Source: a virus. Taken from it: a stretch of 64,000 nucleotides of DNA. A program made the translations under genes and the position numbers. A model generated the notes under the pieces. The model was not told the DNA's origin. It made no database searches and saw only the letters and a program-made list of their open reading frames with translations. Positions 1-64,000 of the stretch are shown here, piece after piece (position 1 is the stretch's first letter; each line of letters begins with the position of its first letter). The stretch covers positions 215 through 64,214 of IMG/VR virus record IMGVR_UViG_3300047160_015936; one strand, written 5' to 3'.

Positions 1-267
1 GCCGGATGGGGCGGGGGCGGACCGGAAGAAAGTCGTGTGATTCGTTACGCGCCGCTTGAGGACGATCCGGTAGAGGTTGTCAAGGAACGGCTAGGCATAT
101 CGTCTCTTTGGTGGTTCGGGTTCGATTGTGCGCATAGTGGTGATTTGTGTCCGCGCATGACGAGAGTATATCAACAAACTGGGGTGTATCGTACGTTTGC
201 CTATGTCGTTGACGAAGTGACGATACTGGCGAAGCAGGTGAAGAACAATGCCAAAATGTCAACATAA
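1..267 (+). CDS. C-terminal part of a conserved phage hypothetical protein (WWFGFDCAH family); 5'-truncated by window edge
   Basis: Frame open from nt 1; motif WWFGFDCAHSGD...YRTFAYV..E...LA.Q; N-terminal half apparently at 63527-64000. Confidence 0.75.
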   Translation, partial: AGWGGGGPEESRVIRYAPLEDDPVEVVKERLGISSLWWFGFDCAHSGDLCPRMTRVYQQTGVYRTFAYVVDEVTILAKQVKNNAKMST

Positions 268-460
268 TCACGTTGAGAGATTAGATGATAGCCGCTTCGC
301 TACGGAATCATTTTTGTGCCCCACTTGCCAAATGTCGTGGTTTGCTTGGAATTATTGTCTTGATTGTTTTGTGTCGATATGTTTTTATTGTGAGACTCCT
401 CAACCGCATTTGTTCGCAGAGCATAACTTGTTACGCGTGAAAAGACGTTTAGGGGTGTGA
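248..460 (+). CDS. Small Cys-rich Zn-finger protein ending in RLGV
   Basis: CxH..CPxC..CxxCx4CxxC; C-terminus RVKRRLGV. Confidence 0.7.
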   Translation: MPKCQHNHVERLDDSRFATESFLCPTCQMSWFAWNYCLDCFVSICFYCETPQPHLFAEHNLLRVKRRLGV

Positions 461-464
461 GAGT

Positions 465-1004
465 ATGACTCAATGTCTCCGGCATAGTTACTCGAACGGA
501 ATCTGCGTCACTTGTGGCGAGCGACGCCAATACAAGACTCACACCGAGTCTTGTCAGACGTGGCGGGAGAACGTAAGACGCGACGCCTTGGCGAAGATCG
601 GCGAATTCTGCGTCATGTGCGAGCATGACGTGAGCGAGAATTTGTTGATTGTGAACGTTGACGGAACGCCGTTGCGGCTGTCGGACGGAAAGAAGTATCA
701 GTTATACGGTTGGCTACGTGCGGGCAAGGTCTCACGAGACGATTACACGCTGGTGTGCCGGAACTGTCAGAGACTCTGGGAGAGACAGGAGACACGTGAT
801 CTTGCGACGCTGGAGACACGAGCGATTGAGCGTTATATGAGTGTCTCGCCGGACGAGGCGGAGACGCTGAGGCTCGTGAACACCGACGGGAGCGAGTTAT
901 CGTTGTCTCATGTGCTTTTGCGGACGTTGATCGTACGCGCGATGGAGGAGAGACAAAAGAGACGTTACGGAGTAACGGAAAAGGAGAATACTCATGGGGT
1001 GTGA
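465..1004 (+). CDS. Degenerate HNH-like Zn-binding protein
   Basis: CVMC...LLIVNVDG...YQLYGWL...YTLVCRNC parallels HNH ORFs at 40389 and 48596 but lacks the catalytic DH. Confidence 0.55.
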   Translation: MTQCLRHSYSNGICVTCGERRQYKTHTESCQTWRENVRRDALAKIGEFCVMCEHDVSENLLIVNVDGTPLRLSDGKKYQLYGWLRAGKVSRDDYTLVCRNCQRLWERQETRDLATLETRAIERYMSVSPDEAETLRLVNTDGSELSLSHVLLRTLIVRAMEERQKRRYGVTEKENTHGV

Positions 1005-1102
1005 TATTCATATGTATGTGGAGTATCGGCAGGAAGGCACAAAAGACTGGCGAGACTTCGGGGGGAGCCGTCGATAACTGAGACCAGCAAGGGAGTAGAA
1101 TA

Positions 1103-1300
1103 ATGCTAATGTCTCCGTTGACGCCACACGAGATCGTCTCCCGGCTCGAACGTTACGAGTTCGGGACGCTTCCGCCGGAAGACTTCATGGAATTGATGCA
1201 GACGATTATTGATAACGGTTATGTGTGGACGTTGGACGGGGAGATTCAGGCGTTGGCGCGGGCGTTGATAGGATCGGGACAGTGTAGGGCGGCGAATTAG
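1103..1300 (+). CDS. Hypothetical protein
   Basis: SD GGGAG, 65 aa, co-oriented. Confidence 0.65.
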   Translation: MLMSPLTPHEIVSRLERYEFGTLPPEDFMELMQTIIDNGYVWTLDGEIQALARALIGSGQCRAAN

Positions 1301-1315
1301 CGAAGGAGAAAGTCA

Positions 1316-1636
1316 ATGGCGAGAAATATCTCGAAACGAAAAGCGCACGAACGAAAGCAAGCGGAGGCAGTCGCGCAAGTGCTTAGCCGTTTCGGTTTGG
1401 GCGAGGAACAAGCAGTGACAGTCGTACTGACAGGTTCTTATCGTGAGTTTGCGGCTTTTCTTGCGGGGACGGTTTACTCGAATCCGTTATTGTATAAAAA
1501 TGTTTCTTGTCTCGCCGACGTTGATCGTATCCGTGGATGCAGAGTACGGGATTGGTTACGTATTGGCACGTTTGGGAACGTGCCGGAACAGCAGGAAATA
1601 ATGGATTATGTGATTGCGATGATGGGGAGAAGATGA
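1316..1636 (+). CDS. Hypothetical protein
   Basis: SD AAGGAG; ATGA overlap with next gene. Confidence 0.7.
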   Translation: MARNISKRKAHERKQAEAVAQVLSRFGLGEEQAVTVVLTGSYREFAAFLAGTVYSNPLLYKNVSCLADVDRIRGCRVRDWLRIGTFGNVPEQQEIMDYVIAMMGRR

Positions 1637-2088
1637 TGATAAACACTCGTTGGGCCGTTGAGGCCGCATTGGAGCGTTTAGGGGTAACGTCAGAGACGAC
1701 GCGTGTGTATGAGATGTACAGGTTAGAGAATACGGGTAGTGTCGTCGCGACGCGGAAGGCCAAAGAAAAAGGCTTGACGGTTGTGTTTCCCGAAGAGAAC
1801 GAGTTGTTCATTGACATTGATGACGATTCGAGTATGCGGATGTATGTGAAAAATTCTCCTCTTATATGGAGACATTTAGGGGTCGAAAAAGAGACCATCC
1901 GAGCGTCGAAGTCGCCGAAGCATGAGCATGTTGTGATGAAGTTGTCGCAGAAAGTCTCACCGTTAGAGCGGCTGGTGCTGCAAGCGTGTCTCGGGAGCGA
2001 CAGAACACGAGAACTGTTTTCATACCTGCATTACCTCGACGGCGACCCGAACCCGTTTTTGTTTTTCGAGAAGGAGGAGGAGAAGTAA
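1633..2088 (+). CDS. Hypothetical protein, possible minimal AEP/primase-like fold
   Basis: Start moved to ATG 1633; ELFIDIDD, SKSPKHEH, LQACLGSD..RE. Confidence 0.6.
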   Translation: MMINTRWAVEAALERLGVTSETTRVYEMYRLENTGSVVATRKAKEKGLTVVFPEENELFIDIDDDSSMRMYVKNSPLIWRHLGVEKETIRASKSPKHEHVVMKLSQKVSPLERLVLQACLGSDRTRELFSYLHYLDGDPNPFLFFEKEEEK

Positions 2089-2519
2089 TGGCTTGCTCTT
2101 GGCGAGACGAGATAACGACACTTCTGCGCGAGCGCGGAGCGAAGATCGTTCGCACGACTCGTCACGAGGTTTGGCGTCTACCGGACGGTCGTGCGTGGAC
2201 CGTGCCAACGACGCCGAAGAACGAAGTACACTGGAAGACGAACCTATGTGACCTTAAACGGTTTCTGGGGATCAGCAAGGCCGCGCACAGAACAGGAGCG
2301 AATAGAGAGAAGCGCGGGCAACGACGTAAGACGATTCCGGGAACGTATGCCAGAAACGTTGTAATGCCGAAGACGTTTCAGGAGAAACTCGTAGACGCTT
2401 TGGCGGAACGCGCGATAGTGAATGGTGTGAAAGAGCGTTTAGGTGTTTTGCCGCGACTGTCGGAAATCGATTGGGCATGGGACGAAGCGTATGGGTTGAC
2501 GAACGAGAGGAACGGATGA
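2088..2519 (+). CDS. HicA-like domain protein with C-terminal extension
   Basis: Start ATG 2088 after GGAGG; EITTLLRERG..VRT.RHEVWRLPDGRAWTVP. Confidence 0.55.
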   Translation: MACSWRDEITTLLRERGAKIVRTTRHEVWRLPDGRAWTVPTTPKNEVHWKTNLCDLKRFLGISKAAHRTGANREKRGQRRKTIPGTYARNVVMPKTFQEKLVDALAERAIVNGVKERLGVLPRLSEIDWAWDEAYGLTNERNG

Positions 2520-2938
2520 GGGAAGACGACAGCGAAATTTGGAGACCTGACCCTTTCTTTCGTCCCGAGCAGCAACACGTTGATATGTGGAACGAAATTG
2601 CGAGGTTGTATTATGCGGAGGAGACAAGACGGAGGCAGGAGGAGAGAAGGAGCAAACGTATGTCTCTCCAACGTTGTTGCCGGTGCACGAGAACGGATAG
2701 TCTTCACGCAAGGACGATCAACGGACAAACGTCGTTGTATTGTCCCTTGCACGATCACGAAGTCATGACGATACTTGTTCAGCACTTTCAGGGGGCGCAG
2801 AAGCTTGCGTCAACGGCGACGAAAAAGGCATTACCGGAGAAACCGATTTCGCTTGACGCCGACGAGGCCGACGTGATACGGTTACGTGGAATGGGCGTGG
2901 CGTGGGAGAGCGAGTCTCCGAAGGAGTCCAAAAAATGA
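2516..2938 (+). CDS. Hypothetical protein with CxxC/CxxH motif
   Basis: ATGA overlap; CCRC...YCPLH; ends RLRGMGV. Confidence 0.65.
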   Translation: MREDDSEIWRPDPFFRPEQQHVDMWNEIARLYYAEETRRRQEERRSKRMSLQRCCRCTRTDSLHARTINGQTSLYCPLHDHEVMTILVQHFQGAQKLASTATKKALPEKPISLDADEADVIRLRGMGVAWESESPKESKK

Positions 2939-3471
2939 ATTTAGCATTAACGACTTTGTTGTTATTTTCGCTCACAGCGGCAAAGACCGCAGAGAAGCCT
3001 CACGTCGCCGACGCTCCTCGTCTCGATGACTCTCATGTGAGGTTTCTGACTTCCGGCGAGACCGAGTGTTGTCTCAATGAACATCAGTTCGTACAAGCGT
3101 ACGTGTGGATGAGCGAAGAGACGAAAGACGCTCCGGTGACGCCGCCGCAAGTGCTCGTCATTCACGCAAACGACTTCTTTCGCGAGTTCGCCGGGAGGGT
3201 CACGAGAGACGTTCAGGGAAACCCTTACGGAGTGAAGGTCAATCGTCTGTCCGACGAAGACGATCAGGGACACGTGACGTATATTGTTTGGGTGTTCGGA
3301 GCTGGAGACGCGAGTCTTTACGTTCATGCTCTTTCAGCGGTGTGGCAGGACGCATATGCGATGACGCCGGACGAGGCACAAGCGAAGGCGGAACGGGTGT
3401 ACGAGAAGATGTTGCGAGAGTTTCCGCAAACCGCGAGTCCGACGCTGGACGTAAGACAGAAGCAAAAATAA
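2935..3471 (+). CDS. Exported hypothetical protein
   Basis: Signal-peptide-like MNLALTTLLLFSLTAA. Confidence 0.65.
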   Translation: MNLALTTLLLFSLTAAKTAEKPHVADAPRLDDSHVRFLTSGETECCLNEHQFVQAYVWMSEETKDAPVTPPQVLVIHANDFFREFAGRVTRDVQGNPYGVKVNRLSDEDDQGHVTYIVWVFGAGDASLYVHALSAVWQDAYAMTPDEAQAKAERVYEKMLREFPQTASPTLDVRQKQK

Positions 3472-3508
3472 AAGACAAGGGGAGACGCTTATGTGTCAAG
3501 GGAGACAG

Positions 3509-3682
3509 ATGTGGCAGTGTCAGGAGTGCCGGAGGGAACGCGCGTGGGGCGAGGGGAAACCGGAGACGCCGAAGAGGCTTGTGATGATCCGGTGTGAGGG
3601 GTGTGAGAGGCTGACGTCACATGAGTATCTATATTTGGACACGTATTCGAGGGAATTTTTTGACTTACTGGAGGCGGTATGA
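3509..3682 (+). CDS. Zn-ribbon protein
   Basis: CQEC...CEGC. Confidence 0.6.
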   Translation: MWQCQECRRERAWGEGKPETPKRLVMIRCEGCERLTSHEYLYLDTYSREFFDLLEAV

Positions 3683-3897
3683 GCAAGCGTTTTTCGTGGA
3701 CAAGACCTTGGCACGGGGTACAGCATCTCTTAGGTGTGCCGAAACCATATCAGGTCTCGGTGACGGATTACGGTTCTTTCGCCGATGCGATAGTTATTAA
3801 TTTGCATCACAATCCGTTTACGACAGGAAAAGAATTCGCCGCAAGAGACGCGGTGGAAGCGCGTCGATGGGCCGAGAAGCAGGCAGAGAAATTATGA
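3679..3897 (+). CDS. Hypothetical protein
   Basis: SD GGAGG, ATGA overlap. Confidence 0.65.
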   Translation: MSKRFSWTRPWHGVQHLLGVPKPYQVSVTDYGSFADAIVINLHHNPFTTGKEFAARDAVEARRWAEKQAEKL

Positions 3898-4097
3898 AAA
3901 CCTCACACGAGATCACAGAACGTATACGTTCTCTCGTTTCTGAGCAACACGGTGCGATGCCGGAAGTGGTGAGACAAGCATATCTCTCGGCGCGGCAGCA
4001 GACGTTGGCGTCATTGGAAATCGCGTTACAAATTGCGCTTCTGCGCGAGACTTTCGAAAAGTATCAGAAAATCGACAGGGGGACGATTGACATATGA
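3894..4097 (+). CDS. Hypothetical protein
   Basis: ATGA overlaps on both sides. Confidence 0.55.
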   Translation: MKTSHEITERIRSLVSEQHGAMPEVVRQAYLSARQQTLASLEIALQIALLRETFEKYQKIDRGTIDI

Positions 4098-4239
4098 GCG
4101 AGCGAAGGCTTTCCGAGCACGACCGCAGTACGTATACCGAATACTACGTCACTCACTCGACAGGTTCGTGGACGATCATCAGAGTCACAAAACCGGGTTT
4201 TGTTGAGTGGCGCGAGATGAAGACGACGAGGGTGAGGGT

Positions 4240-4740
4240 ATGACTGATAAGGAAGTAAAGAAACCGAGAAGGGTGATGCAACTCCTACATAGCGGCAGGC
4301 GTTTGCACTGGGAAGATAAAGATTGTGCTGCAGCTCCGCCTTGCACCCCCGTCGCCCTCGAAATCCTACCCTCTTCCGCACGTCCCAAGATCGTTTGTCT
4401 TTGTGGGTCAACGCGATTCTATCCACAATTTCAGCAGGCGAACTATGAGGAAACAATGGCGGGCCACATCGTGCTCTCAGTAGGATTTTACCCCCATGCC
4501 GACATAGGCGTACACCATTCTGAGAATGTCGGCTGCACGTCGGAGCAGAAAATCGCGCTCGATGAACTGCACAAGCGCAAGATTGATCTGGCTGACGAGA
4601 TTCTGGTGCTGAATGTTGGCGGGTATATCGGAGACAGCACACGGTCGGAAATTGAGCACGCCATCAAAACGGGCAAGCCGGTTCGGTATCTAGAATCGCC
4701 AGACCAAGTTTCGACTGCTGTAGGGAATCCGCGGCATTAG
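4240..4740 (+). CDS. DUF4406-like / nucleoside deoxyribosyltransferase-fold protein
   Basis: IVCLCGSTRF...HKRKIDLADEILVLNVGGYIGDSTRSEIEHA. Confidence 0.75.
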   Translation: MTDKEVKKPRRVMQLLHSGRRLHWEDKDCAAAPPCTPVALEILPSSARPKIVCLCGSTRFYPQFQQANYEETMAGHIVLSVGFYPHADIGVHHSENVGCTSEQKIALDELHKRKIDLADEILVLNVGGYIGDSTRSEIEHAIKTGKPVRYLESPDQVSTAVGNPRH

Positions 4741-5906
4741 AAACAAAACCGTAACGTCTCCGCAAAATCTTCCCTCACATGAAACTCCTCATCGGTCATC
4801 GGTGAGGAGTTTTTTGTCAAGACTCCCAAGGCTTCCAAGTCTTCGCAGATACGCCTCGTCGTTGTCGCCGGGATCGAAGTTCGCCGGGAAAGTTCGGAGA
4901 CAGTGAGAGCCTGTCCGCCAGAGAAACATTTCGTCACGAGTTCACGCGAAAACGGTACGGAGTCCCAAGCGACACGTTTCGCAAGACGCAGATCGGCGTC
5001 TTCAGGGTCACGTGAGTACAAGGACGCATAGGCAGAGACGATCAACTCAAACGTTTTGTTCAGTCGTGTCGGTTCTTCGATAGACGGGATGTCGATGATT
5101 TCGTTACGGCCACGAGAGTCGCGAGAGACGTTCGCGCGGAGAGTCGCCGTCATCTGTGCGTATCTGGCGGTGACTTCTCCGAGAGCGTCGGGAAGAGGCG
5201 CGAGTTGTTTAGAAGGACGAGACGCGAAGTCTTTTCCTAGCCGTTGCGTCGTCGCCAGAATGACAGCTTCATTGCCGCGTTGTCGTGCCGCATATCTTGC
5301 CAGTTCAATGCTTCCGTTTCTCGGCCAGCGGACGTTGACAAAACGCTCCCCGAGGTCTCGCTTGAGTCCCCAAGCACGTTCCAACGCGGGCGTACACGCG
5401 GCGATGACGGTGATTTTGCCTTCCCAAGACGGCTTGTCGGCGGTGCCGGTGTAGCGAACGAGTTTGCCGTCGTAGATTTCGCGGAGCTGTGCGATGACTT
5501 CCGCGCGGTCGTCTTCGCGTTTCGAGAGAAGCGTTGTGAGGTCTTTGAAGAGCAAGAGACCGGATTTGCCAATCTGTGAGAGGAGTCCCGGACCGGTTTT
5601 GCCTTGAAAGTGCGAGATAAACGTCCGAGGGGTGAGGTCGCTGATGACGCGGGTGTTGGGGAGTCCGGAGAGAGATTGAATCATAGTGCTCGTCTTGGCG
5701 CTTCCTGAAACACCCGTAATTGTCAGCCATACCGGATCGGCGTCGATAGCGTAGTGAGCGTGAGCAGCAGCTAACGTAATTTCGAGCGCTTCGTAGTCGA
5801 GTGCGTAATACCACTGATCGAGATGCGCGCGGAGGTAGTTCCAACGAGCTTGCGGAGAAGGTGACGGAATAGTTATCGAAGCTGCAACGGCGGCAGGATC
5901 ACTCAC
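4737..5906 (-). CDS. AAA+ P-loop ATPase (MCM-like, putative replicative helicase) with C-terminal wHTH
   Basis: Walker A GVSGSAKT, LLLFKD, LREIYDG, IAACT, LGERF; C-terminal LTVSELSRRTSIP; GTG start after GGGAG. Confidence 0.7.
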   Translation of the reverse strand: MSDPAAVAASITIPSPSPQARWNYLRAHLDQWYYALDYEALEITLAAAHAHYAIDADPVWLTITGVSGSAKTSTMIQSLSGLPNTRVISDLTPRTFISHFQGKTGPGLLSQIGKSGLLLFKDLTTLLSKREDDRAEVIAQLREIYDGKLVRYTGTADKPSWEGKITVIAACTPALERAWGLKRDLGERFVNVRWPRNGSIELARYAARQRGNEAVILATTQRLGKDFASRPSKQLAPLPDALGEVTARYAQMTATLRANVSRDSRGRNEIIDIPSIEEPTRLNKTFELIVSAYASLYSRDPEDADLRLAKRVAWDSVPFSRELVTKCFSGGQALTVSELSRRTSIPATTTRRICEDLEALGVLTKNSSPMTDEEFHVREDFAETLRFCF

Positions 5907-5992
5907 GAAGAACGCTCCCGAAGAGATATTTTTCGCGCTTGTGAGAAGGTGGGAAGATGAACGTTGGGCCGGTGAGGTTTTGGACTTTTTCG

Positions 5993-6020
5993 AGTATAAC
6001 ACAGTTGACAACGGATGCAA
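5993..6020 (-). promoter_or_regulatory. Extended -10 sigma70-type promoter for the helicase
   Basis: TGTGTTATACT with TTGCAT 16 bp upstream. Confidence 0.55.
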
Positions 6021-6033
6021 ACGAGGTTATATT
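6005..6033 (+). promoter_or_regulatory. sigma70 promoter, leaderless transcript
   Basis: TTGACA-17bp-TATATT, ATG 7 nt downstream (6040), no SD. Confidence 0.75.
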
Positions 6034-6039
6034 TTGGGA

Positions 6040-6414
6040 ATGGCAGAGATCAAAGACTTAATCGGGAAGACGGTGACGAGGATAGGAAACTCACCGGAGT
6101 ATGTGAATTTCATCACCGAAGACGGGAAGACGTTTTCGTTGTGCCACGAACAGGAGTGTTGCGAGAACGTTACGGTGGAAGACATTTGTGGAGAACTTGA
6201 CGATCTTGTCGGTTCGCCGATTGTGTCTGCGAGCGAAGAGACGAGCAAGGATGTCGATCCTGAAGGTGTGAAAGCGCCGGAGGGTTATCATGAGTCGTTT
6301 ACGTGGACATTTTATCGTCTCGCGACGAATAAAGGCACCGTTGTCATTCGTTGGTACGGTTCGTCGAACGGTTACTACAGCGAGTCGGTGAGTTTCATCG
6401 AAGTTGGTGAGTAG
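6040..6414 (+). CDS. Conserved phage hypothetical protein
   Basis: HEQECCENV.VEDI.G...TWTFY.L.T.KG.V.IRWYG.SNGYYSE. Confidence 0.8.
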   Translation: MAEIKDLIGKTVTRIGNSPEYVNFITEDGKTFSLCHEQECCENVTVEDICGELDDLVGSPIVSASEETSKDVDPEGVKAPEGYHESFTWTFYRLATNKGTVVIRWYGSSNGYYSESVSFIEVGE

Positions 6415-6675
6415 ATGTCACGCAAACACTTCACGGTCGGCAGCGAGCCGGGGCTACAGAAACGCAAAAGCGGCTACTGGCGCGACACCAATTGGCGCAA
6501 AGGAAACCGTAAGGGGTATCATTGTCCCTTGTGTCCAGAGTCGTTCGGAAAAGACGAAGACTTCAAAGCGCATTGGAAGGAACGGCATAATAACGATGTT
6601 GATCGAGCACGGGCGCATAGGAATGTTGTTTATGCACTCCGAAGTTTGCGTCTTCCGAGGAAGCCGAAATCATGA
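6415..6675 (+). CDS. Basic C2H2 Zn-finger protein
   Basis: YHCPLC..SF....DFKAHWKERH. Confidence 0.7.
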   Translation: MSRKHFTVGSEPGLQKRKSGYWRDTNWRKGNRKGYHCPLCPESFGKDEDFKAHWKERHNNDVDRARAHRNVVYALRSLRLPRKPKS

Positions 6676-6843
6676 AATGGCAAATACGTAAAATCGGTTC
6701 TTTCTGGTGGATCACCCCGCCGGGATACTCGGGACTATGTAAGTTTCACAGGTACGATAACTTCGACGACGTGTTGTGGCAGTGTACGATGATAAGTCGC
6801 GAAGTTACGAGAGTGACGAAAGCATGACCGGGAGGAACGTCTT

Positions 6844-7764
6844 ATTTTAGACTTCGACAAAATCACGGAAGCGATTCTTGCGTGTCCAGTGTCTCCGGCG
6901 GCAAAAGAAGAAGGCGCGAGGCTGGTTCAGGAATGGATTGACGCGAGGATGACAAGGGACGCGCGGGACAAGACTTTCGCCGTGGAGTTGGGTTTTCACG
7001 TGTGGTTGGACGAGCAGACACTCGTCATTGGCGTCCAAGACCGTATCGCCGAAGACAAAGACGGCTATTACGGCTGCGAGTGGAAGACCGCGAAAGAGCC
7101 GAAGAAAAACCGTAACGGCGAAGACTCGGCGTGGTGGAACGAGCGGGTGTGGGAGAACGAACTCACGAATGGACCGCAATTGGCTATCTATGCATTGGCA
7201 CAAAACCGTGGCACGTTTTTTCGTCGTGACGGAACGGCGTTTCATCTGGGTGTCTCCTCGCCGCGAATTTATGTTCGTGCAGTTGTCAAGAGTGTCCCTT
7301 GCGTCTTCTGGGGCGACAAGATGGTCAGTTTCTCCGAAGCGCAGTTAGAGAATACCGTTCAAGGGCTTTTGACAAAAGCCGAGACGATCCGTCGTCTGCG
7401 TCGTTATTCTCACGTTCCTTGGCAACTTCCCGGAAAACAATGTTTCGCGTTCAACCGTGAGTGCGGGTTGTTCGAGAAGTGGTGCGGGAAGGGGTTACAT
7501 CCGACGACGGTGACTTCGGTGAGGTTCGATCCCGGAGACCCCGCAGCGACACTGGCGTTGCCGCATCTGCCTGCTAGTGTGTGGACGCGAGAAGACTTGG
7601 TGATTCTGTCGGCAAGCAGTTATACGACCGCAAGTGACTGTCTGGAGAAGTACCGGATTATTTCGGGAGCCTTGACAGGCGGGGGAAAAGATAGTAGCTT
7701 AGAACTCGACACGGGGACGGTGTTGCACGCGGGAGTCGCCGAGGCTTATCGTCAACTCATGTGA
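6844..7764 (+). CDS. PD-(D/E)XK Cas4/AddB-like nuclease, circularly permuted
   Basis: VE..F, GVQDRI, CEWKT, QLAIY, Cys cluster; usual N-terminal LSASS..C..Y / GTVLH segment lies at the C-terminus; start ATT 6844 or GTG 6889. Confidence 0.8.
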   Translation: MLDFDKITEAILACPVSPAAKEEGARLVQEWIDARMTRDARDKTFAVELGFHVWLDEQTLVIGVQDRIAEDKDGYYGCEWKTAKEPKKNRNGEDSAWWNERVWENELTNGPQLAIYALAQNRGTFFRRDGTAFHLGVSSPRIYVRAVVKSVPCVFWGDKMVSFSEAQLENTVQGLLTKAETIRRLRRYSHVPWQLPGKQCFAFNRECGLFEKWCGKGLHPTTVTSVRFDPGDPAATLALPHLPASVWTREDLVILSASSYTTASDCLEKYRIISGALTGGGKDSSLELDTGTVLHAGVAEAYRQLM

Positions 7765-7773
7765 GGGGGACAC

Positions 7774-8280
7774 GTGGACAAAACAAAGTTTACCGAAGAG
7801 TATCAACCGTATCTGAAAGGCATCGCGTCGTTACGAATGATTGAAAGGTCTTTGGAGATGTTGGGACTGTTTGATACCGAAAAAGGCGGTGCGGCGGTGG
7901 AGCACAGTTATTATATTCTTTCACACTACGAAGACTCTCCCCGGATTGATTTTTACTTCAAAAACTACGGCGACGACCGGACGGCGGAGAAGCGTTTGAC
8001 GACGGCTTTGGAATATCTTCTTCCAAAAGTGACGAACATACGCAAAGACTTTGACGCTCAAAAAAAGATGAACATTTCCATGACGCATGGAGAAGTGGTG
8101 TTGAGACTTTTGAGTGAGGCACCGGATACGGTCAGGTTTATCGAAAACAAAATCGAAACCACGTTTCCGGGAGAAAAGGGTGTACGGCTGGAGTACGTCG
8201 TTGATGGAACAACAGGCGAGGAGTGTGAGCCACACTTGCCGACGCTGCTCGCGAAGACAAGATTAGGAGTGAAAGAATGA
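7774..8280 (+). CDS. Hypothetical protein ending KTRLGVKE
   Basis: SD GAGGGG, 168 aa. Confidence 0.7.
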   Translation: MDKTKFTEEYQPYLKGIASLRMIERSLEMLGLFDTEKGGAAVEHSYYILSHYEDSPRIDFYFKNYGDDRTAEKRLTTALEYLLPKVTNIRKDFDAQKKMNISMTHGEVVLRLLSEAPDTVRFIENKIETTFPGEKGVRLEYVVDGTTGEECEPHLPTLLAKTRLGVKE

Positions 8281-8735
8281 AAACATTTTTTATCGTCGTT
8301 GGTGTGATTGCTTTGCTTGTGACTCTCTGCGTCGTCGGTGGAGTGTTGAACGTCGCGGGATGGTTTGTCAATGACAGCAAAAATGGCGCAATTGTCGTCG
8401 CGCAGGAACAACTGAACGCGCGAGCATTGCTGCAAAAATATGAGTGGTTCAAGAACGCTTCGGCGACACTCGACGCGCGACAAGCCGATATTCACATCTA
8501 CGACGTTAAATGTGCAAAGATGGAAGCGAGAAAGAACCTTGACCGCACCGACCGTGAGCAGCTTCTCGTGTGGGAACAGGAAGTCGCGGGGATGAAAGCG
8601 TCGTACAATTCTCTCGCAGCAGAATATAATGCGCAGATGAGCAAGGTTAATTATCGTTTCACGAACATCGGCGACTTGCCACAAGGGGCTTCGACGCTTC
8701 TTCCGCGTGAGTATAAACCGTATCAGGAATTCTGA
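8277..8735 (+). CDS. Membrane-anchored coiled-coil protein
   Basis: N-terminal TM helix; YNSLAAEYNAQM. Confidence 0.75.
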   Translation: MKTFFIVVGVIALLVTLCVVGGVLNVAGWFVNDSKNGAIVVAQEQLNARALLQKYEWFKNASATLDARQADIHIYDVKCAKMEARKNLDRTDREQLLVWEQEVAGMKASYNSLAAEYNAQMSKVNYRFTNIGDLPQGASTLLPREYKPYQEF

Positions 8736-9300: not shown

Positions 9301-10205
9301 GCGAAAACAGCACAAACGTCACTGGAACCGTTATGACGACGAACGGGCCGACTAACGTATCGCCGAACCCTGCGCCGTCGTTGACCCAAGCTGTCAACGC
9401 CGCTGTTGGGAAGTCTCTGCCAAAACCTCGCGGGTTGGAGACGAAGAACACGAAAGACTTGAGTCTGGAGTATTTTCATGGACTCATCTATGCCGAGACT
9501 TCTGCGTGGAAGACAACAACGGCGGCGCATTTCGGCAAACCCGAAGATGTAAGGATTATTCTCACGCGGAGCGAAGAACAGTTGAAGCCGATCAAAGACG
9601 AGGGGTATCAGTATACGCCGATTATGAAAGCGGCTGACCCGGCGGCGGCGTTCCTCTTCGCGTGGCAGTATCCGGAGCAGTTGTGGCCGGATTGGGCACA
9701 GAGACCGAACCGGACTCTCGTCATCGACGACCTCACCAAAGGCATTCAGATTCTTCTTGACGCCGATGACAGCAAGGACATTCGAAAGTCTTACGGGAAT
9801 GTCGCCGATTCGGTTTCGCCGGTGTTTAACACGTCTCTGGCGAAACCGCAGAATCTCGTTCTCATCGCGCTGGCAAAGGTGAAAGAGAATCCGATTACCG
9901 ACGTGGAGAGAGTCGGTCCGGACCTTCCGCCGTCGATGCTGAACAGCGTCTTTCTTCCTGATCTTGAATTTGTTTTCTATATTGACCCGCAGACGCACAA
10001 GATGAGGACGGACCGGGATTTTATCACGGCGAAGAAGATTGACGAGAAGGGCCGTGAGGTTACGTATCGGAGGGAGATTTTTGCCAAGAACAAGATCGAG
10101 CTGACCGGAGCCGGGAGGGGCGTGATTCGACCTTTGGAAGACCCGAATCTGGGCGTGTTGTGGGAACGGGTGAAAGCGGCGGGAAGGCTTGGGGCAATAA
10201 AATGA
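9297..10205 (+). CDS. AAA_24 / Sak4-like ssDNA-annealing ATPase
   Basis: LIYAETSAWKTT (Walker A variant), TLVIDDLT, FAKN. Confidence 0.7.
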   Translation: MSENSTNVTGTVMTTNGPTNVSPNPAPSLTQAVNAAVGKSLPKPRGLETKNTKDLSLEYFHGLIYAETSAWKTTTAAHFGKPEDVRIILTRSEEQLKPIKDEGYQYTPIMKAADPAAAFLFAWQYPEQLWPDWAQRPNRTLVIDDLTKGIQILLDADDSKDIRKSYGNVADSVSPVFNTSLAKPQNLVLIALAKVKENPITDVERVGPDLPPSMLNSVFLPDLEFVFYIDPQTHKMRTDRDFITAKKIDEKGREVTYRREIFAKNKIELTGAGRGVIRPLEDPNLGVLWERVKAAGRLGAIK

Positions 10206-10384
10206 CTACTTTTTGCACCGTACTGAGCGTGATACTAGTAGCTTTCTTGGTTGCATCTCCAGTTCTTCTTCACGCCTTTAGTATTATGGCGTTTGGCGGG
10301 AAAGGCGGACACGAGGATGACCAAACTGACGAACAGAAATATATGAAGTATCTTGAACGGCAGAGAAAGGGAATGCCGAAGTAG
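10202..10384 (+). CDS. Small membrane protein
   Basis: Single TM helix. Confidence 0.5.
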   Translation: MTTFCTVLSVILVAFLVASPVLLHAFSIMAFGGKGGHEDDQTDEQKYMKYLERQRKGMPK

Positions 10385-11621: not shown

Positions 11622-11948
11622 ATGAGTGGGAGTGAGAAGGTGGTGTTGTCGGTTTTGATTCTGCTGACGTTTCTTGCCGGATTCGCCAGCGGAGTTTGGT
11701 GCGCGCCGAGCCCACCGAAGTCTTTCGTCCTGCCGTTGACGTCGCGTGAAGTCTCTCCGGCAAAAGCCGCGTGCGGCGACGCCGATGAGTTACGGTTTTA
11801 TTCCTTCGCGTTTGACTTGCAGAATCGTCCGGACGAGGCGACAGCGAAGCCAATTCAGTTGCTCGTGTCGTGCAAGGTTATTCAGGACATGACAGCAAGT
11901 ACGGCTACGGAGTTTCGTTTCTCCGTTCCTCATTATGAGGAAAAGTAG
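11622..11948 (+). CDS. Membrane/exported protein
   Basis: N-terminal hydrophobic helix. Confidence 0.6.
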   Translation: MSGSEKVVLSVLILLTFLAGFASGVWCAPSPPKSFVLPLTSREVSPAKAACGDADELRFYSFAFDLQNRPDEATAKPIQLLVSCKVIQDMTASTATEFRFSVPHYEEK

Positions 11949-12121
11949 TGGAAAAGGGTTGTACGTACGTTGTATGTACGTCTCCGGGGTGCACACGGGA
12001 GATCGTAGACGAAAACCTCGCGTTTACGTGTCTCTCGTGCGGAGACATCGGACTATGTGAGTATTGCTTCTGGCGTCACGAAGAGAAACATCAGGAAGAG
12101 GGAGAAAACGACGATGAGTAA
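11948..12121 (+). CDS. Small Zn-finger protein (57 aa, not in ORF track)
   Basis: MEKGCTYVVCTSPGC...CLSC....LCEYCFWRH...H. Confidence 0.55.
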   Translation: MEKGCTYVVCTSPGCTREIVDENLAFTCLSCGDIGLCEYCFWRHEEKHQEEGENDDE

Positions 12122-57503: not shown

Positions 57504-57568
57504 GACTGCCTGATGAGGGCTAATTGCTCGAAACGCGAGAGAGAGAGAAAGACTCTCGCGTCGCAGTC
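57504..57568 (+). ncRNA. Type I hammerhead ribozyme
   Basis: Stem I gactgc/gcagtc, CUGAUGA, stem II gggc/gctc, GAAA, stem III cgcgag/ctcgcg, GUC cleavage triplet (cut after 57562). Confidence 0.9.
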
Positions 57569-57592
57569 AAACGACTGAAAGGAGAGAGACAA

Positions 57593-58576
57593 ATGAGTAC
57601 AGCATTGAAGCCTAGCGCGTTAAGACAAGCGTTAGAGGTGTGTGTGAAAGCGAAACGTCCTGCGTGTGTCTGGGGCAGTCCTGGCATAGGCAAAAGTGAC
57701 ACCATGAAACAGATGGCCGAAGAACTGTCACGGCAGTTGATTGACCTTCGAGCCGTCCTGCTTGATCCTGTAGACCTACGTGGTCTGCCAACGGTGAAGG
57801 ACGGTTTGTCGAAATGGGCGATTCCGTCATTTTTGCCACGTGAGGGTACGGGGATTCTGTTTCTAGATGAACTAAACCGCGCGCCCGCGTTGGTACAGAA
57901 TGCCTGCTTTCAGCTAGTCCTCGACAGAAAGCTTGGCGAGTACGTGCTGCCGGAAGACTGGACAATTGTCGCTGCGTGTAACCCGACAGGGACAGGGACA
58001 ACGAAGATGAGCGATGCGCTGGCGTCACGGTTCGTTCACTTCGATATGGAACCCGACCTTACCGATTGGTGCAATTGGGCAGTCAGTCGCAACATCGAAC
58101 CAATCGTGATTGCGTTCTTGCGGTTCCGTCCCGAGTTGCTGCATCAATATGACGTGAAATTGCGTTCGTTCCCATGTCCTCGCACATGGGAGTTTGTCTC
58201 GCAGATTACCGCGAGCTCGCCAGCACGTGAGATTGAACACGCGTTGTATGTGGGTGCGGTTGGTGAGGGTGCTGCGGTTGAGTATTCGGCGTTCATGAAA
58301 CTGTTTCGCGAGTTGCCGTCGATTGATGCGATTCTGCTTGACCCTGTCAAGTCTCCGGTACCGTCTCAACCGTCAACGTTGTTCGCCATAGCTTCTGCTT
58401 TGGCGAGACGGGTAAACGATGGTAACTTCGGACGCGCAGTCACGTATCTCAACCGTCTTCCGGCGGAATACATGGTCATGAGTATCAAAGACGCCGTGAC
58501 ACGAGACAAGACGTTGTGTTCCACTCCGGAGTTCACGAAATGGGCAACGGCAAATCAGGAGTTTTTCGCCAAGTAA
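57593..58576 (+). CDS. MoxR-like AAA+ ATPase
   Basis: GSPGIGKS, DLRGLP, LFLDELNRA, AACN, ALASRF, PRTWE. Confidence 0.9.
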   Translation: MSTALKPSALRQALEVCVKAKRPACVWGSPGIGKSDTMKQMAEELSRQLIDLRAVLLDPVDLRGLPTVKDGLSKWAIPSFLPREGTGILFLDELNRAPALVQNACFQLVLDRKLGEYVLPEDWTIVAACNPTGTGTTKMSDALASRFVHFDMEPDLTDWCNWAVSRNIEPIVIAFLRFRPELLHQYDVKLRSFPCPRTWEFVSQITASSPAREIEHALYVGAVGEGAAVEYSAFMKLFRELPSIDAILLDPVKSPVPSQPSTLFAIASALARRVNDGNFGRAVTYLNRLPAEYMVMSIKDAVTRDKTLCSTPEFTKWATANQEFFAK

Positions 58577-58669
58577 GGGAACGGCAATTGCGTTAGCTTC
58601 GAGACTACGCTCACGTGACAGGTGAGCGTCACTGGAAGCTAAACCAAAACGGGAAAAGGAGACAAGAGT

Positions 58670-59530: not shown

Positions 59531-59724
59531 CTCTTGCGATGAGACACTAGACAGGGTATTCTTTCTAGTGTCTTTCGGAGGAACTAAGTTATGCAACTAA
59601 GCATCGAAGCACAACGTTTTGAACATGCGAAAGAGATAGCGATTTTGCTGCGTGCACATATGCTTCGTTTGAACGCATATCTCTTGTGGGAAGCTATGGA
59701 ACGGGCGTTGAAAGAGGGTCAACG

Positions 59725-60912
59725 ATGACAATCGAAAAGAGAATTAGCAAAGCACGCGCAGACCTACTCTTAGACTTTCCTTGGTTCGGCGCACTCGCGA
59801 TGCATCTTGCGATTGTGCCGGAGGAGAGCATAGACACGTTCGACGTTGACGGAACCACGATGCGGTATAACCCGAAGTTCGCGGAGACACTGACGAACAA
59901 GGAACTCCAAGGCGTCATCGCGCACGAAGTCATGCACTGTGCGTTTCTGCATATGTTCCGGCGGGAACACCGTGACCATATGCTTTGGAACGTCGCTTGT
60001 GACTACGCGATTAACGGCGAGATTCTGAAGACGCTGGACAGAAACGGAATTCCAATGACGTTGCCCAAGGGTTGCTTGCATGATAAGAAATATGACGGTT
60101 TGGCTTCGGAAACTATTTACGCTCAGTTACAGAAAGAAGGTAAGGGAAAGGGGAAGCAGTCTCCACAACCGACAGGGACAGTGTTAGACGCACCGAAGGG
60201 ACAATCGGACGGAGACTCACAGAGTCAACAGGGACAAGCGGGACAGTCTCAGCAGAAGACTCCGGTAACGTCACAGCCGCAAACGATGACAGAAGATGAC
60301 TGGAAGATCGCCGCTGAACAAGCGAACAAGGTTGCGCAGAAAGCGGGGAATATGCCGGGACACGTCGCCAGGGCGCTTGGGAAGCTACGGGAAGCGAAAG
60401 TGAATTGGAGACAGGAATTGAGAGAATTTCTCGCGGCAACGGTGCCGTCTGACTACTCTTGGCAAAACCCGAATCGCCGGTTCATTCATCTGGGAGTATA
60501 TCTTCCTGGTGTTGTGAAAGAGAATTTCGGCCACTTGGCGATAGCGATAGATACGTCTGGGAGTATCACGCAAGAGATGCTGGATACGTTTGCGAGTGAA
60601 GTCAACACAATTGCGTCTGAGTTGAAGCCGGAAAGAGTTACGGTCATCTACTGTGACGCGAGAGTCAATCATGTAGACACGTTCGAAAGTGAAGACGTGA
60701 CGTTCAAGATGCACGGCGGGGGAGGAACGCAATTCTCACCCGTCTTTGATCTAGTGAACGATTGGGAGGAACGTCCAGTTGCTCTCCTCTACTTCACTGA
60801 CCTTGCGTGTTACGACAAGCCGACAGAACCAGGTTATCCTTGTCTCTGGGTGACGCAAGAGTGTGTGACGCTGGACGGGCCGTTTGGGCGCACGATTAGG
60901 ATTACGGAGTAG
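59725..60912 (+). CDS. DUF2201 metallopeptidase plus VWA-like domain protein
   Basis: HEVMH, WNVACDYAIN, DTSGS (MIDAS), GGGGT.F, YFTD. Confidence 0.9.
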   Translation: MTIEKRISKARADLLLDFPWFGALAMHLAIVPEESIDTFDVDGTTMRYNPKFAETLTNKELQGVIAHEVMHCAFLHMFRREHRDHMLWNVACDYAINGEILKTLDRNGIPMTLPKGCLHDKKYDGLASETIYAQLQKEGKGKGKQSPQPTGTVLDAPKGQSDGDSQSQQGQAGQSQQKTPVTSQPQTMTEDDWKIAAEQANKVAQKAGNMPGHVARALGKLREAKVNWRQELREFLAATVPSDYSWQNPNRRFIHLGVYLPGVVKENFGHLAIAIDTSGSITQEMLDTFASEVNTIASELKPERVTVIYCDARVNHVDTFESEDVTFKMHGGGGTQFSPVFDLVNDWEERPVALLYFTDLACYDKPTEPGYPCLWVTQECVTLDGPFGRTIRITE

Positions 60913-60919
60913 ACGAAAC

Positions 60920-61141
60920 GTGAACGACATTCAGTTATATGAATACGAATTGCGGCATGAGGAGACGGGCGAGATTCGGTCAAGTCACCTTTACTGTGCG
61001 ATGCTTACCGAAAAAGAAGCATTCGATCTGAATCGGGAACGTCGTAACGATGGTACGCCATGGCTTTGGGTTCGGCGCGAAGACTTTCGTGAGATGGTGA
61101 GAAAGGCGATGAGAGAGGAGCGAAGGAATGATGACGTGTAG
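60920..61141 (+). CDS. Hypothetical protein
   Basis: GGAG + GTG. Confidence 0.55.
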   Translation: MNDIQLYEYELRHEETGEIRSSHLYCAMLTEKEAFDLNRERRNDGTPWLWVRREDFREMVRKAMREERRNDDV

Positions 61142-61355
61142 CCACCCCTGCCCCGCAAGGAGTCACATACCACTTCGTCACAAGTTCCCGAACTATCCGC
61201 ATTTTTGGCATTGCGAGAAGTGTCGAGAGAAACGGTGGTTTCATCTGTGCCGGTTTTGTTGTGAATTGTATTGCTACCAATGTAAAACCATAACGGCGCA
61301 AGAATCTCAGATATTGCTGGTATACCAAACGATGAGAGGATTAGGAGTCATATGA
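61128..61355 (+). CDS. Zn-finger paralogue ending RGLGVI
   Basis: CSH..CEKC..CRFCx4CYQC. Confidence 0.7.
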   Translation: MMTCSHPCPARSHIPLRHKFPNYPHFWHCEKCREKRWFHLCRFCCELYCYQCKTITAQESQILLVYQTMRGLGVI

Positions 61356-61481
61356 TCGGAACCATGATGTTTCTTTTAGGAAATTTCTTCGGCGCGTTCG
61401 TTGTTCTCGCGTTGTGGGAGAGATGGGCAAAACGTCTCATGCGCGGTCAGCGCGAGACGCTTAGGCTAGTCCGGAGTCTTT

Positions 61482-61870: not shown

Positions 61871-62745
61871 CGAAACATTTGTGTAAGAATTTTGATTGTC
61901 CAGATTACGCTGATGACGCTCAGATTTTTTGTCTCGCGTGTCGTCATGTGCATTACGTCACTGTCTCGCGGTTGCTAGGCCCAGCCGCAGCGGAGTTTTC
62001 CGACCCTCCGTTTTTGCCCAAACCTCCGAAGATATACAAAGGCGTGGCGTGGGTTGCGTTGCCGAGACCAGGGCAGAGACCGTTTGTCATATCGCTGGCG
62101 AGTTATCGTGTGGCGCGAAAGGGCAAGAATCTCGTTGCGACGTGGCAAAAGACTGACAGCAGCGACGAGACGAATCTCGTTTTGATGTTCGTGAGTAACG
62201 GCAAACCGTGTATGCTTGTGTTGTCAGACATGCCCAGAACACGTGAGTTTCCGAAACGCGACAAGGTAAAACCTCTTGCGTCGCGTCTTCCGATTCCGAA
62301 AGACAAGACAAGACTCGAAGCCGCGATTAAGAAGCTAGAAGGGCGGTTAACGGGAAGGTGTATTGACTCACAAATGTTGCCTCAACCGCAAAGACCGCGT
62401 TTGGCGAAAGCCACGAGCGCGTCTTCGAAACGCGAGACGGTTCTCGCGTGGTATCAGGAGAAAGAACAGAGACGGAAGATTCGTAGTGTGATGAAAAAGT
62501 GGGATACTTACTATGGCAACTACGTCTTACGCGGACTCGGGTTGACTTCAGCGCCGGATTTGGGTTACACGAAACCGAAGACACAAGAAGAGACAGTCAC
62601 GATGTTAGTCTCGTTCGAGCAGGAGAAGATCGATTACGTTCTTGCGTTACGCGCGAGACGCAAGGGGGAGAGAGACCTTAGGAAGTTACAAGAGCGGCTG
62701 GAACAGCTTACGGCGGTGACGAATGGACAGACGCGAGAAGAGTGA
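61867..62745 (+). CDS. Basic hypothetical protein with N-terminal Zn motif
   Basis: 292 aa, SD GAGGAG. Confidence 0.7.
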   Translation: MTKHLCKNFDCPDYADDAQIFCLACRHVHYVTVSRLLGPAAAEFSDPPFLPKPPKIYKGVAWVALPRPGQRPFVISLASYRVARKGKNLVATWQKTDSSDETNLVLMFVSNGKPCMLVLSDMPRTREFPKRDKVKPLASRLPIPKDKTRLEAAIKKLEGRLTGRCIDSQMLPQPQRPRLAKATSASSKRETVLAWYQEKEQRRKIRSVMKKWDTYYGNYVLRGLGLTSAPDLGYTKPKTQEETVTMLVSFEQEKIDYVLALRARRKGERDLRKLQERLEQLTAVTNGQTREE

Positions 62746-63025
62746 CGTTTGCTGGCACGCGGGGAAGCCGGAAGAGACGGATTCTTTTTACGATCACATG
62801 CGATGTCCGCGCATTGCGTGCTGTTTCGTTTATACGTCGCCGCATGTTGCGACAGGGAACGGTTTTCATCGTTATTTTTATTGTCCTGCTTGTGACCACA
62901 CATTGAGTCATTATATGTGTGACAGGTGTGGGGTAGTCTTTTGTCGCGACTGTCGTCTAACGAACGCGGCAGAGACGGCGAAAGAACGTCTAGGCGTCAA
63001 CAACGTTGTCGAGGAGCCGTTTTGA
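62723..63025 (+). CDS. Zn-finger paralogue with KERLGV
   Basis: CWH..CPAC..CDRCGVVFCRDC. Confidence 0.7.
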   Translation: MDRREKSDVCWHAGKPEETDSFYDHMRCPRIACCFVYTSPHVATGNGFHRYFYCPACDHTLSHYMCDRCGVVFCRDCRLTNAAETAKERLGVNNVVEEPF

Positions 63026-63303
63026 CAGAGACAGAGACAAAGACGTGTGTTCACGCGGCACAGCGACATTACGTCCTCGCGTTGCATTGTCCGAAGTGTT
63101 TCCCCTTACGTAACGATCTTGCCGCGAAGCATAGCACGTGCGTACACTGCGGCGTGGTCTTTTGTCTTCAGTGCCGGAGAGAGCATCGCCGAGCGACAGA
63201 AGCGATGAACGTTAAGAGAGTGACGGCGCGCATGGGTGTGAGAGTCTCGGTCAAGAAACCGTTTTATGACGTTGGAGACGCGGAGAAGGATGAGAATGTA
63301 TGA
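63022..63303 (+). CDS. Zn-finger paralogue with ARMGV
   Basis: TTG start after GAGGAG; CVH..CPKC..CVHCGVVFCLQC. Confidence 0.7.
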   Translation: MTETETKTCVHAAQRHYVLALHCPKCFPLRNDLAAKHSTCVHCGVVFCLQCRREHRRATEAMNVKRVTARMGVRVSVKKPFYDVGDAEKDENV

Positions 63304-63530
63304 CGGAAACGTATACGTGTAAACACATCCACACCGAAATTCCACAAGTATGTGACGTAAGCGATTGTCCGTACTGTCTCTTCGAGTCTTGTCACAATTT
63401 TTGTCTTGACTGCAGGAAGATGGTTTGTCTAAAATGTTTCCGAAGTGACGACGTGTTGACGGAGAGGCGGGCGAAGATTCTGGTGATGATGCGGCTGGGG
63501 GTGTTGACGGAGAACGAGGTACTCGATTGA
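63300..63530 (+). CDS. Zn-finger paralogue with MRLGV
   Basis: CKH..CPYC..CLDCRKMVCLKC. Confidence 0.7.
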   Translation: MTETYTCKHIHTEIPQVCDVSDCPYCLFESCHNFCLDCRKMVCLKCFRSDDVLTERRAKILVMMRLGVLTENEVLD

Positions 63531-64000
63531 GCGACAAACGTTACCGCACGTGTGAGCACACGACGAAAGTTCGCTGGCGTCTCTATCGTTGTCAACGATG
63601 CGACAAGCGTAAGCGTCACGTCGCGTGTGAGGATTGTCATGGAGTCTTTTGCGAAACGTGTGGGAGACCGAACAAACGCGGGAAGAAAGAAAGACTCAGT
63701 GAAGTTGCGAAGATCGTCGCGGAGGCGAAGCATCGGTTGGGAGTGGATTGTGGGTGTGATGAGTGTCTACAGAAACGTTTCCCAGTGGCGATGGATCAGA
63801 TAATCAAAGACGCTTACGCTCTGGCGAAGCTTCGCCACTCTGCTTGGCAGAGCGCGCTTTGCGTCCCAGGCCATCGAAGCCCGCCCAGCTGGTCGAGGTA
63901 TTCGTGGACGCGAGACAAAAGCGACTTGCCCGAGGGGGAGTGGATGCGGGAAGTCGATAAAGCGCAATGGCGAGACGCCGAGACAGGACTGGCATGTCTC
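63527..64000 (+). CDS. Zn-finger paralogue fused to the N-terminus of the WWFGFDCAH-family protein; runs off the window
   Basis: 158 stop-free codons; CEH..CQRC..CEDCHGVFCETC, KHRLGV, GEWMREVDKAQW.D.ETGL.CL. Confidence 0.75.
   Translation, partial: MSDKRYRTCEHTTKVRWRLYRCQRCDKRKRHVACEDCHGVFCETCGRPNKRGKKERLSEVAKIVAEAKHRLGVDCGCDECLQKRFPVAMDQIIKDAYALAKLRHSAWQSALCVPGHRSPPSWSRYSWTRDKSDLPEGEWMREVDKAQWRDAETGLACL

Follow-up and report, generated by a model that had tools for sequence, protein, structure and literature searches.

The 64,000-nucleotide stretch of viral DNA analysed here (the window; bases 215-64214 of IMG/VR virus record IMGVR_UViG_3300047160_015936) encodes a set of small proteins that share a short peptide motif, [VA]-K-x-R-L-G-[VI], or looser versions of it. 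There are 12 copies on 11 small proteins, all in frame and in + strand open reading frames (ORFs). The origin of the set is compound: a zinc-finger family bearing the motif has been duplicated, the same word stands on unrelated proteins, and the whole is specific to this phage lineage. The best reading, held tentatively, takes the motif for a shared contact handle in the form of a portable, Gly-capped amphipathic helix.

The small-gene arm and its motif carriers

The record is 64,214 bp long and carries a 97-bp direct terminal repeat at its ends, which makes the genome a 64,117-bp circle. Genes on the + strand run from ~56,900 across the junction to ~24,300; the structural genes lie between, on the - strand. 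The ranges 61128-63760 and 1-8280 are therefore parts of a single continuous arm of tightly tiled small + strand genes, directly downstream of the genes for an AAA_5 (MoxR-like) ATPase and a DUF2201_N/VWA-like protein. This arm is putatively early, a label carried over from the initial annotation. Every one of the 12 peptides that the annotation listed is found in its place and in frame. Its guess that the reading frames at the two ends of the window are one gene also holds: 63527..64000, the 117 nucleotides (nt) absent from the window, and 1..267 join into an open frame of 285 amino acids (aa) with two copies, AKHRLGV and VVKERLGI (Table 1).

Table 1. Genes that carry the motif, and the two genes upstream of the motif-bearing cluster, in order along the + strand across the junction
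Position (strand)	Gene or protein	Motif copy	First base of R (or of first listed residue)	Further features
57524..58576 (+)	AAA_5 (MoxR-like) ATPase			directly upstream of motif-bearing cluster
59686..60912 (+)	DUF2201_N metallopeptidase + VWA-like domain			directly upstream of motif-bearing cluster
61128..61355 (+)	75-aa Zn-finger paralogue	terminal MRGLGVI-stop (61335-61352)	61335	TTAGGAGTC = ribosome-binding site for ATG at 61352
62723..63025 (+)	100-aa Zn-finger paralogue	AKERLGV (62978-62998)	62987	motif 11 residues after last Cys
63022..63303 (+)	93-aa Zn-finger paralogue	VTARMGV (63220-63240)	63226	
63300..63530 (+)	76-aa Zn-finger paralogue	MMRLGV (63486-63503)	63492	
63527..64000 (+)	5' part of 285-aa fusion gene; N-terminal B-box-like Zn finger	AKHRLGV (63725-63745)	63734	24 residues from last Cys to R
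1..267 (+)	3' part of 285-aa fusion gene; phrog_2164 domain	VVKERLGI	88	bases 70-99 = 10-residue insertion VEVVKERLGI
248..460 (+)	70-aa Zn-finger paralogue	terminal VKRRLGV-stop (437-457)	446	GGGGTG 8 nt ahead of ATG at 465
465..1004 (+)	179-aa Cys-rich protein	loose copy QKRRYGV (954-974), 9 residues from end	960	no family match above cut-off
1633..2088 (+)	151-aa protein; no Pfam family	N-terminal ALERLGV (1666-1686)	1675	motif followed by TSETTRVYEMYR, helix-turn-helix-like in appearance; second related word HLGV at 1873-1884
2088..2519 (+)	143-aa protein; HicA-like N-terminus	VKERLGV (2427-2447) on C-terminal extension	2436	
2516..2938 (+)	140-aa protein	loose copy RLRGMGV (2879-2899), 12 residues from end	2885	
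7774..8280 (+)	168-aa protein	terminal AKTRLGVKE-stop (8251-8271)	8260	TTAGGAGTG = ribosome-binding site for ATG at 8277

The copies RRYGV, RGMGV and RGLGV are loose matches to the motif. Proteins are named below by the first base of their genes. The label "HicA-like" for protein 2088 has weak similarity on its side (PHROG toxin E 5.7e-5), though its Pfam HicA_toxin score of 20.2 bits lies below the cut-off of 27; the labels "AEP-like" and "dead HNH" find no Pfam or PHROG support. Protein 7774 has no relative in Pfam, PHROG or viral contigs, and protein 6889 none in viral contigs. Two adjoining finger paralogues share a Pro-Phe after the motif, in VVEEPF-stop (62999-63022) and VKKPFYD (63241-63300). 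The end of the first has some resemblance, and no more than that, to the acidic Pro-Phe tail of single-strand-binding proteins.

Enrichment, paralogy and protein-level conservation

Counts were taken over 29 small + strand genes of the arm (3,516 aa), as defined by a tiling made for this analysis, and over the phage's 54 other proteins (13,841 aa) for comparison. RLG[VI] occurs 8 times in the arm, where 2000 per-protein shuffles give a mean of 0.16 and a maximum of 3, and 0 times in the other proteins, which upholds the enrichment proposed for this arm. The looser R[LMY]G[VI] has 10 copies in the arm vs 1, and the longer [VA]K.RLG[VI] has 6, against 0.0008 in 5000 shuffles and 0 elsewhere. The same word emerges when none is specified: RLGV is the top tetrapeptide of the arm (n=7), and the top count of the shuffled arm (2000 per-protein shuffles) is never above 5. 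The next tetrapeptides, KERL and ERLG (4 each), come from the same sites, and the top tripeptide is LGV (n=11). Per-protein shuffling and this motif-blind test rule out chance as the origin of the motif. A six-frame scan of the window finds 13 further RLG[VI], all of them in non-coding frames or antisense by comparison with the gene tiling.

When the zinc-finger family described below is collapsed to one member, RLG[VI] remains at n=5 against 0.14 expected, a count that 0/2000 shuffles reach. Such recurrence above chance, in proteins without other kinship, is one mark of a short linear motif (SLiM). Another is an exposed or flexible setting, on which the two models described below differ: the loop copy has low confidence on a confident fold, and the modelled zinc-finger copy lies on a confident helix. 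The copies also have a preferred position. Nine of the 12 end 23 residues or fewer from the C-terminus, where random placement gives 2.5, and outside the family the proportion is 4/6 (P 0.007); only 3/12 lie within 2 residues of the protein end. The motif is thus mostly C-terminal, in line with the initial description of the copies as mostly terminal or in a loop, and it is confined to the small-gene arm.

Half of the copies (6/12) belong to one family. Proteins 248, 61128, 62723, 63022 and 63300 and the N-terminus of 63527 can be aligned over their whole length, with mutual profile scores of E 1e-21 to 1e-27. Invariant among them are one His and six Cys (C-x2-C followed, after 8 to 13 residues, by C-x2-C-x4-C-x2-C), and they share the final G-V. 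An AlphaFold2 model of protein 63300 (9-row alignment; mean predicted local distance difference test score, pLDDT, 80) comprises three short strands, a helix (51-65) that ends at R65 and, past the turn, a short second helix (71-74). In this family the motif is the conserved end of the C-terminal helix and has been inherited by duplication. Outside the cluster, at 11948-12121, lies a further B-box-like Cys/His finger ORF of 57 aa, without the RLGV tail.

Relatives of the family are few. Against B-box PF00643, their best Pfam match, two paralogues score 15.5 and 16.8 bits, below the cut-off of 24.1, and the other four have no B-box match. A word-index search with the family profile returns the phage's own proteins only. 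An exhaustive profile search gives 51 matches, 4 of them the phage's own. Among 9 of the other 47 that were examined, P0028 and P0035 look like true relatives, and the remaining 7, Cys-rich repeat proteins of B-box type, lack the tail. P0028 (174 aa) is the sole foreign full-length relative among the matches examined: it has R-F-G-L at the 18-residue spacing from the last Cys considered below, and a second AMERLGV after another Cys cluster, such that each cluster is followed by a helix ending ERLGV or DRFGL. P0035 is a truncated relative. A PDB sequence search with the family yields weak Cys-pattern matches only, which stop before profile position 60. Fold searches with the model of 63300 and with that of the phrog_2164 domain, described below, give no PDB match at E up to 0.001, and an ESM Atlas search gives nothing at 0.9 or above.

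The same word also stands on at least four proteins without detectable kinship to this family. The claim that the carriers are otherwise unrelated therefore holds for these and not for the six paralogues. Outside the family its settings are diverse: the word is inserted in a loop of the phrog_2164 domain, forms part of the C-terminal tail in both protein 7774 and the HicA-like protein 2088, and is N-terminal in protein 1633. The family profile misses these carriers (E 0.041 for protein 2088, E 1.8 to 8.2 for the rest), and the 18 residues upstream of their motifs are no more like family tails than shuffled sequences are (best-match P 0.30 to 0.60). Pure paralogy is ruled out by the five copies left after collapse, together with the lack of any link by family profile or anchored tail comparison.

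The loop insertion is the clearest case of portability. The C-terminal domain of the fusion protein (159 aa) belongs to phrog_2164 (PHROG E 1.1e-28), a family of 2,137 proteins, and its residues 95-104 (VEVVKERLGI) form an insertion with respect to 104 aligned homologues (of 120 listed). Columns 95-103 are empty in 104/104 of these, and column 104 is filled in 1; the homologues thus lack the segment, as a check proposed in the initial annotation had anticipated. A regular-expression survey of the same loop started from 120 listed rows, of which 7 were dropped for lack of an anchor and 1 is the phage's own. In 111 of the 112 foreign homologues left, which have both anchor motifs, there is no such loop motif; the exception is P0144, with AAERYGLS. 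The description of the motif as a portable tag is apt for this insertion, and weakened for the half of the copies that arose by paralogy.

Three near-invariant residues have been lost beside the insertion, at positions 75, 86 and 87: C to G (99/104 homologues have Cys), C to R (102/104) and H to Y (100/104). Judged from these substitutions, this copy of the domain has probably lost a metal or active site. In a model of the domain (mean pLDDT 85.5), residues 95-102 form a helix ending at Gly103; its pLDDT is below 50, where the rest of the fold is modelled confidently, and the loop copy passes directly into a core beta strand. The fusion itself is strain-specific, since other contigs hold separate genes: P0004 (128 aa) is a separate finger protein with a different C-terminus, and P0053 (168 aa) and P0174 (187 aa) are separate phrog_2164 proteins. 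Strain variants are near-identical.

Across the six copies of the form [VA]-K-x-R-L-G-[VI], 55 of 79 pairwise identical residues are encoded by different codons, in agreement with the protein-level conservation first suggested from differing codons. The loop copy and the copy of protein 2088 have V-K-E-R-L-G in common and differ in 6/6 codons. Since identical residues mostly rest on different codons, selection acts on the peptide.

A search with the VWA protein finds three distant loci (46, 38 and 32% identity). Two of them are in complete records, G001 and G002, which keep the AAA gene as well (58% and 36% identity, alongside 46% and 38% for VWA). With the same crude gene caller, R[LMY]G[VI] is found as 1 and 2 loose copies in the 19,825 and 16,908 aa of these relatives, so that the enrichment stands against related phages too. 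Neither relative has a match to the zinc-finger profile or any shared C-terminal tails, and the zinc-finger family and the motif are missing from the three loci. The motif is a trait of this phage's lineage and is not inherited along with the AAA/VWA pair, which the relatives keep without motif enrichment. A megablast of 1-8300 against phage records gives no match.

The neighbourhood has further features. The block at 57524-60912 encodes the AAA_5/MoxR-like ATPase, a 286-aa protein without family, and the DUF2201_N metallopeptidase (HExxH) with its VWA-like domain; the block is also kept in G001 and G002. At 4737-6020, on the minus strand and hence inverted within the + strand arm, lies a gene for a 427-aa P-loop protein with a C-terminal helix-turn-helix (HTH) of IclR/MarR type; in the relative L003, its homologue (17018-18274) points the same way as the VWA gene. 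Two tandem paralogues in a relative (G001 9490-9846 and 9843-10271, equal to L003 11611-12392) have a common terminal LT[ED][DE]QIALL helix, a tail-sharing of another kind.

Readings of the motif and their rivals

The element would be an amphipathic helix of 7 to 10 residues ending in [VA]-K-x-R-L-G-[VI], with Gly as its C-cap, hydrophobic residues at about -8, -5, -1 and +1 from the Gly, and Lys/Arg on the opposite face. On the contact-handle reading, the peptide would be kept as a shared surface, for docking or oligomerisation, directed to one common partner or acting among the carriers themselves. Each protein of the zinc-finger array would then combine a constant end, the conserved tail, with a specific one, the variable finger. 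A contact handle is rated highest because not only the cap residues but also Lys/Arg survive in unrelated settings, despite a change in every codon.

A bolder form of the same idea would make the motif a lineage-specific address tag: a helical K-x-R-L-G-V handle on about one-third of the small, putatively early proteins (11/29), which gathers, places or times host-takeover proteins via one phage or host reader. Such a tag could have been acquired through duplication and tail fusion, and in one case through insertion in a loop of an enzyme-like domain that lost three near-invariant Cys/Cys/His residues. This form is possible but doubtful.

Several observations weigh against a shared handle of either kind. 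With paralogy removed, only ~5 independent events are left; in the motif-blind test on the collapsed set, the top count of 4 is matched by 44/2000 shuffles; and two copies (RRYGV, RGMGV) are loose. No partner has been found for the motif, the AAA and VWA genes persist in relatives that have no motif, and there are no orthologous early regions in the collections searched. In the zinc-finger family, the distance from the last Cys to the motif R/G is exactly 18 residues in 4/6 paralogues (11 and 24 in the others). The motif helix of protein 63300 is modelled as confidently as the core (pLDDT 90 for block 51-60 and 88 for block 61-70), which fits a purely structural cap. Given the fixed spacing and the confidently modelled helix, the motif may be a built-in part of the domain, inherited by duplication. 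Finally, the Leu of the motif is encoded by TTA/CTA in 7/9 copies, compared with 17.6% of the arm's other Leu codons (P 1.4e-4, post hoc). This bias hints at a constraint at the nucleic-acid level that a contact handle leaves unexplained.

The strongest rival is a structural element without a shared reader: a stable Gly-capped helix end whose hydrophobic residues, on both sides of the Gly, pack on its own carrier, and which has been multiplied by duplication of one family and by fusions and deletions within a recombining array of small genes. Besides the spacing and the modelled helix, it draws on the paralogy of six of the 12 copies and on the tail-less B-box-like ORF at 11948. The region does form fusions, as the 285-aa gene and its separate 128-aa and 168/187-aa counterparts in other contigs attest, and the copies at 437-457 and 2427-2447 are identical at 16/21 bases. 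A cap, however, needs Gly and hydrophobic neighbours, not conserved Lys/Arg, yet V-K-E-R-L-G is kept with every codon changed. Apart from the motif, tails outside the family bear no likeness to those within it. The loop insertion takes the place of a conserved site, in a fold that forms without it in 104 homologues, and there is no copy in the phage's other 13,841 aa. The structural account is, on balance, on the unlikely side.

One could also regard the word as the second helix and turn of small DNA-binding early proteins, some copies of which have been truncated. A common HTH turn reads ...A-x-x-L-G-V-S/T..., and comparable runs are seen here: ALERLGVTSETTRVYEMYR in protein 1633, AMERLGVPTDKVKENLRKY in P0028 and also LKRFLGISKAAH in the HicA-like protein, with the short helix 71-74 past the turn in the model of 63300. 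Three copies stop 0 to 2 residues past the motif and therefore have no recognition helix, and the loop copy enters a core beta strand directly. Ser or Thr comes next in only 2/12 copies, Lys stands four positions before the Gly where a small residue is expected, and 10 carriers give no HTH family match at E up to 1. The HTH form is plausible only for protein 1633 and P0028, and as a general account of the motif it is improbable.

A further possibility is that an RNA or DNA word, YTAGGNGT, is what is selected, whether for ribosome binding or standby, for recognition by an RNA-binding protein (one of the zinc fingers, for example) or as another cis element, and that the peptide is a by-product. 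Three of the 12 copies (446, 8260 and 61335) are true ribosome-binding sites of the next gene, 3 to 8 nt ahead of its start, exactly as an early estimate of two or three such overlaps foresaw; the other 9 are either 24 nt or more from a start or close to one served by a site of its own. CGNYTRGGNRT is matched 11 times where 2.76 are expected (0/100 shuffles reach 11), the + strand of the arm is enriched in TTAGG (11/23 window copies), and the arm has 7 in-frame occurrences of TTAGGNGT. The lean towards TTA/CTA extends to other LG[VI] of the arm, including those at 1876 and 3730, and is not accounted for by likeness to ribosome-binding sites, RNA folding or promoter boxes. The bases that encode the RRYGV copy (960-974) form a hairpin, with 6 bp perfectly paired around a loop of 3 nt (z -2.1 over a span of 61 nt), and the ALERLGV copy at 1675 has 12/15 bases in common with it.

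Such a signal is nonetheless very improbable. The copies keep to a single reading frame (9/9 for TAGGNGT, 12/14 for YTAGG), and the Arg, Gly and Val codons are free to vary in their third position. Against an anti-Shine-Dalgarno probe, the real codons bind no more strongly than synonymous recodings do (32% of 1000 are as strong). The DNA around the copies is not conserved beyond -12..+4, there is no common RNA fold among them (z from -2.1 to +1.2), and no promoter or terminator box falls on a motif site except the hairpin at 963-977. No phage tRNA-Leu was found. The Shine-Dalgarno sequence is ruled out as a general cause by its restriction to 3/12 copies and by codons no more Shine-Dalgarno-like than recodings; an extended DNA motif, an RNA fold, promoter or terminator boxes and a phage tRNA-Leu were each considered as causes, with nothing found for any.

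A metal-ion-dependent adhesion site (MIDAS) binds an extended acidic peptide, which the helical and basic motif does not resemble. This weighs against the least probable account, one option of the initial annotation and a special case of the contact handle, in which the tag is read by two proteins of the phage itself, the MoxR-like AAA ATPase and the DUF2201 metallopeptidase-VWA protein. Against it, too, both genes are conserved in the two complete relatives without enrichment, zinc-finger family or shared tails. In its favour, the two genes lie directly upstream of the motif-bearing cluster, and Kaur, Burroughs, Iyer and Aravind (2020, eLife, PMC7159879) propose peptide capture in which extended peptides are bound at vWA MIDAS sites and the protein thus captured is remodelled by MoxR.

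The distinction between these readings matters since most small early phage proteins are without known function and are usually studied singly. If the contact-handle reading is true, a single pull-down, using the tag peptide, would identify the hub that serves the whole panel, and the variable zinc fingers would be interchangeable adaptors. If the motif is only a helix cap spread by duplication and fusion, it is a warning that short words can recur across phage gene arrays with no reader in common. As a short motif grafted into a conserved fold, the loop insertion is a rare case in nature.

Comparison with known systems

Literature searches on phage B-box paralogues and early-protein linear motifs returned no description of such a motif set. 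A search of titles and abstracts on bacteriophage B-box zinc-finger paralogues found no paper on phage B-box arrays, and the term "short linear motif" is absent from the papers found on phage early proteins and host takeover.

The closest analogues are short docking motifs common to many clients of one hub, such as the bacterial beta-clamp-binding motif, the acidic tail of SSB and the gp45-binding tails of T4. Like these, the phage motif is a short and mostly terminal peptide with protein-level conservation, borne by proteins that are otherwise unrelated. It differs in that its sequence is unlike any of them, some copies are internal, half are paralogous, and no hub has been found. Signals for ClpX reportedly include, in work of Flynn and colleagues from 2003, a MuA-like C-terminal class of basic residues followed by a hydrophobic end. 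Three phage copies (RRLGV, RLGVKE, GLGVI) likewise run from basic to hydrophobic at the extreme C-terminus, whereas 9/12 lie away from the very end.

Other comparisons concern the form of the motif. The HTH turn often reads LG[VI], and helices may be C-capped by Gly in the Schellman/alpha-L manner. The phage helix similarly ends at a Gly flanked by hydrophobics; in contrast to a generic turn or cap, its background is only 0 to 2 copies per ~14,000 to 20,000 aa (the rest of the phage and its relatives), its Lys/Arg are conserved, and the second helix is often missing. The fingers resemble the B-box (PF00643) in their C-x2-C-x8-13-C-x2-C-x4-C-x2-C spacing, and eukaryotic B-box repeat proteins are among the profile matches; the phage proteins differ in their sub-cut-off scores and in the helix-RLGV tail, which lies outside those matches. 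As in vWA-MoxR peptide capture, genes for a MoxR-like AAA protein and a VWA protein adjoin the motif-bearing cluster, although DUF2201 has 0 occurrences in the available text of PMC7159879 and the relatives keep the pair without the tag. The distinctive points of the phage set are the insertion of the motif into a loop and its tie to a zinc-finger array.

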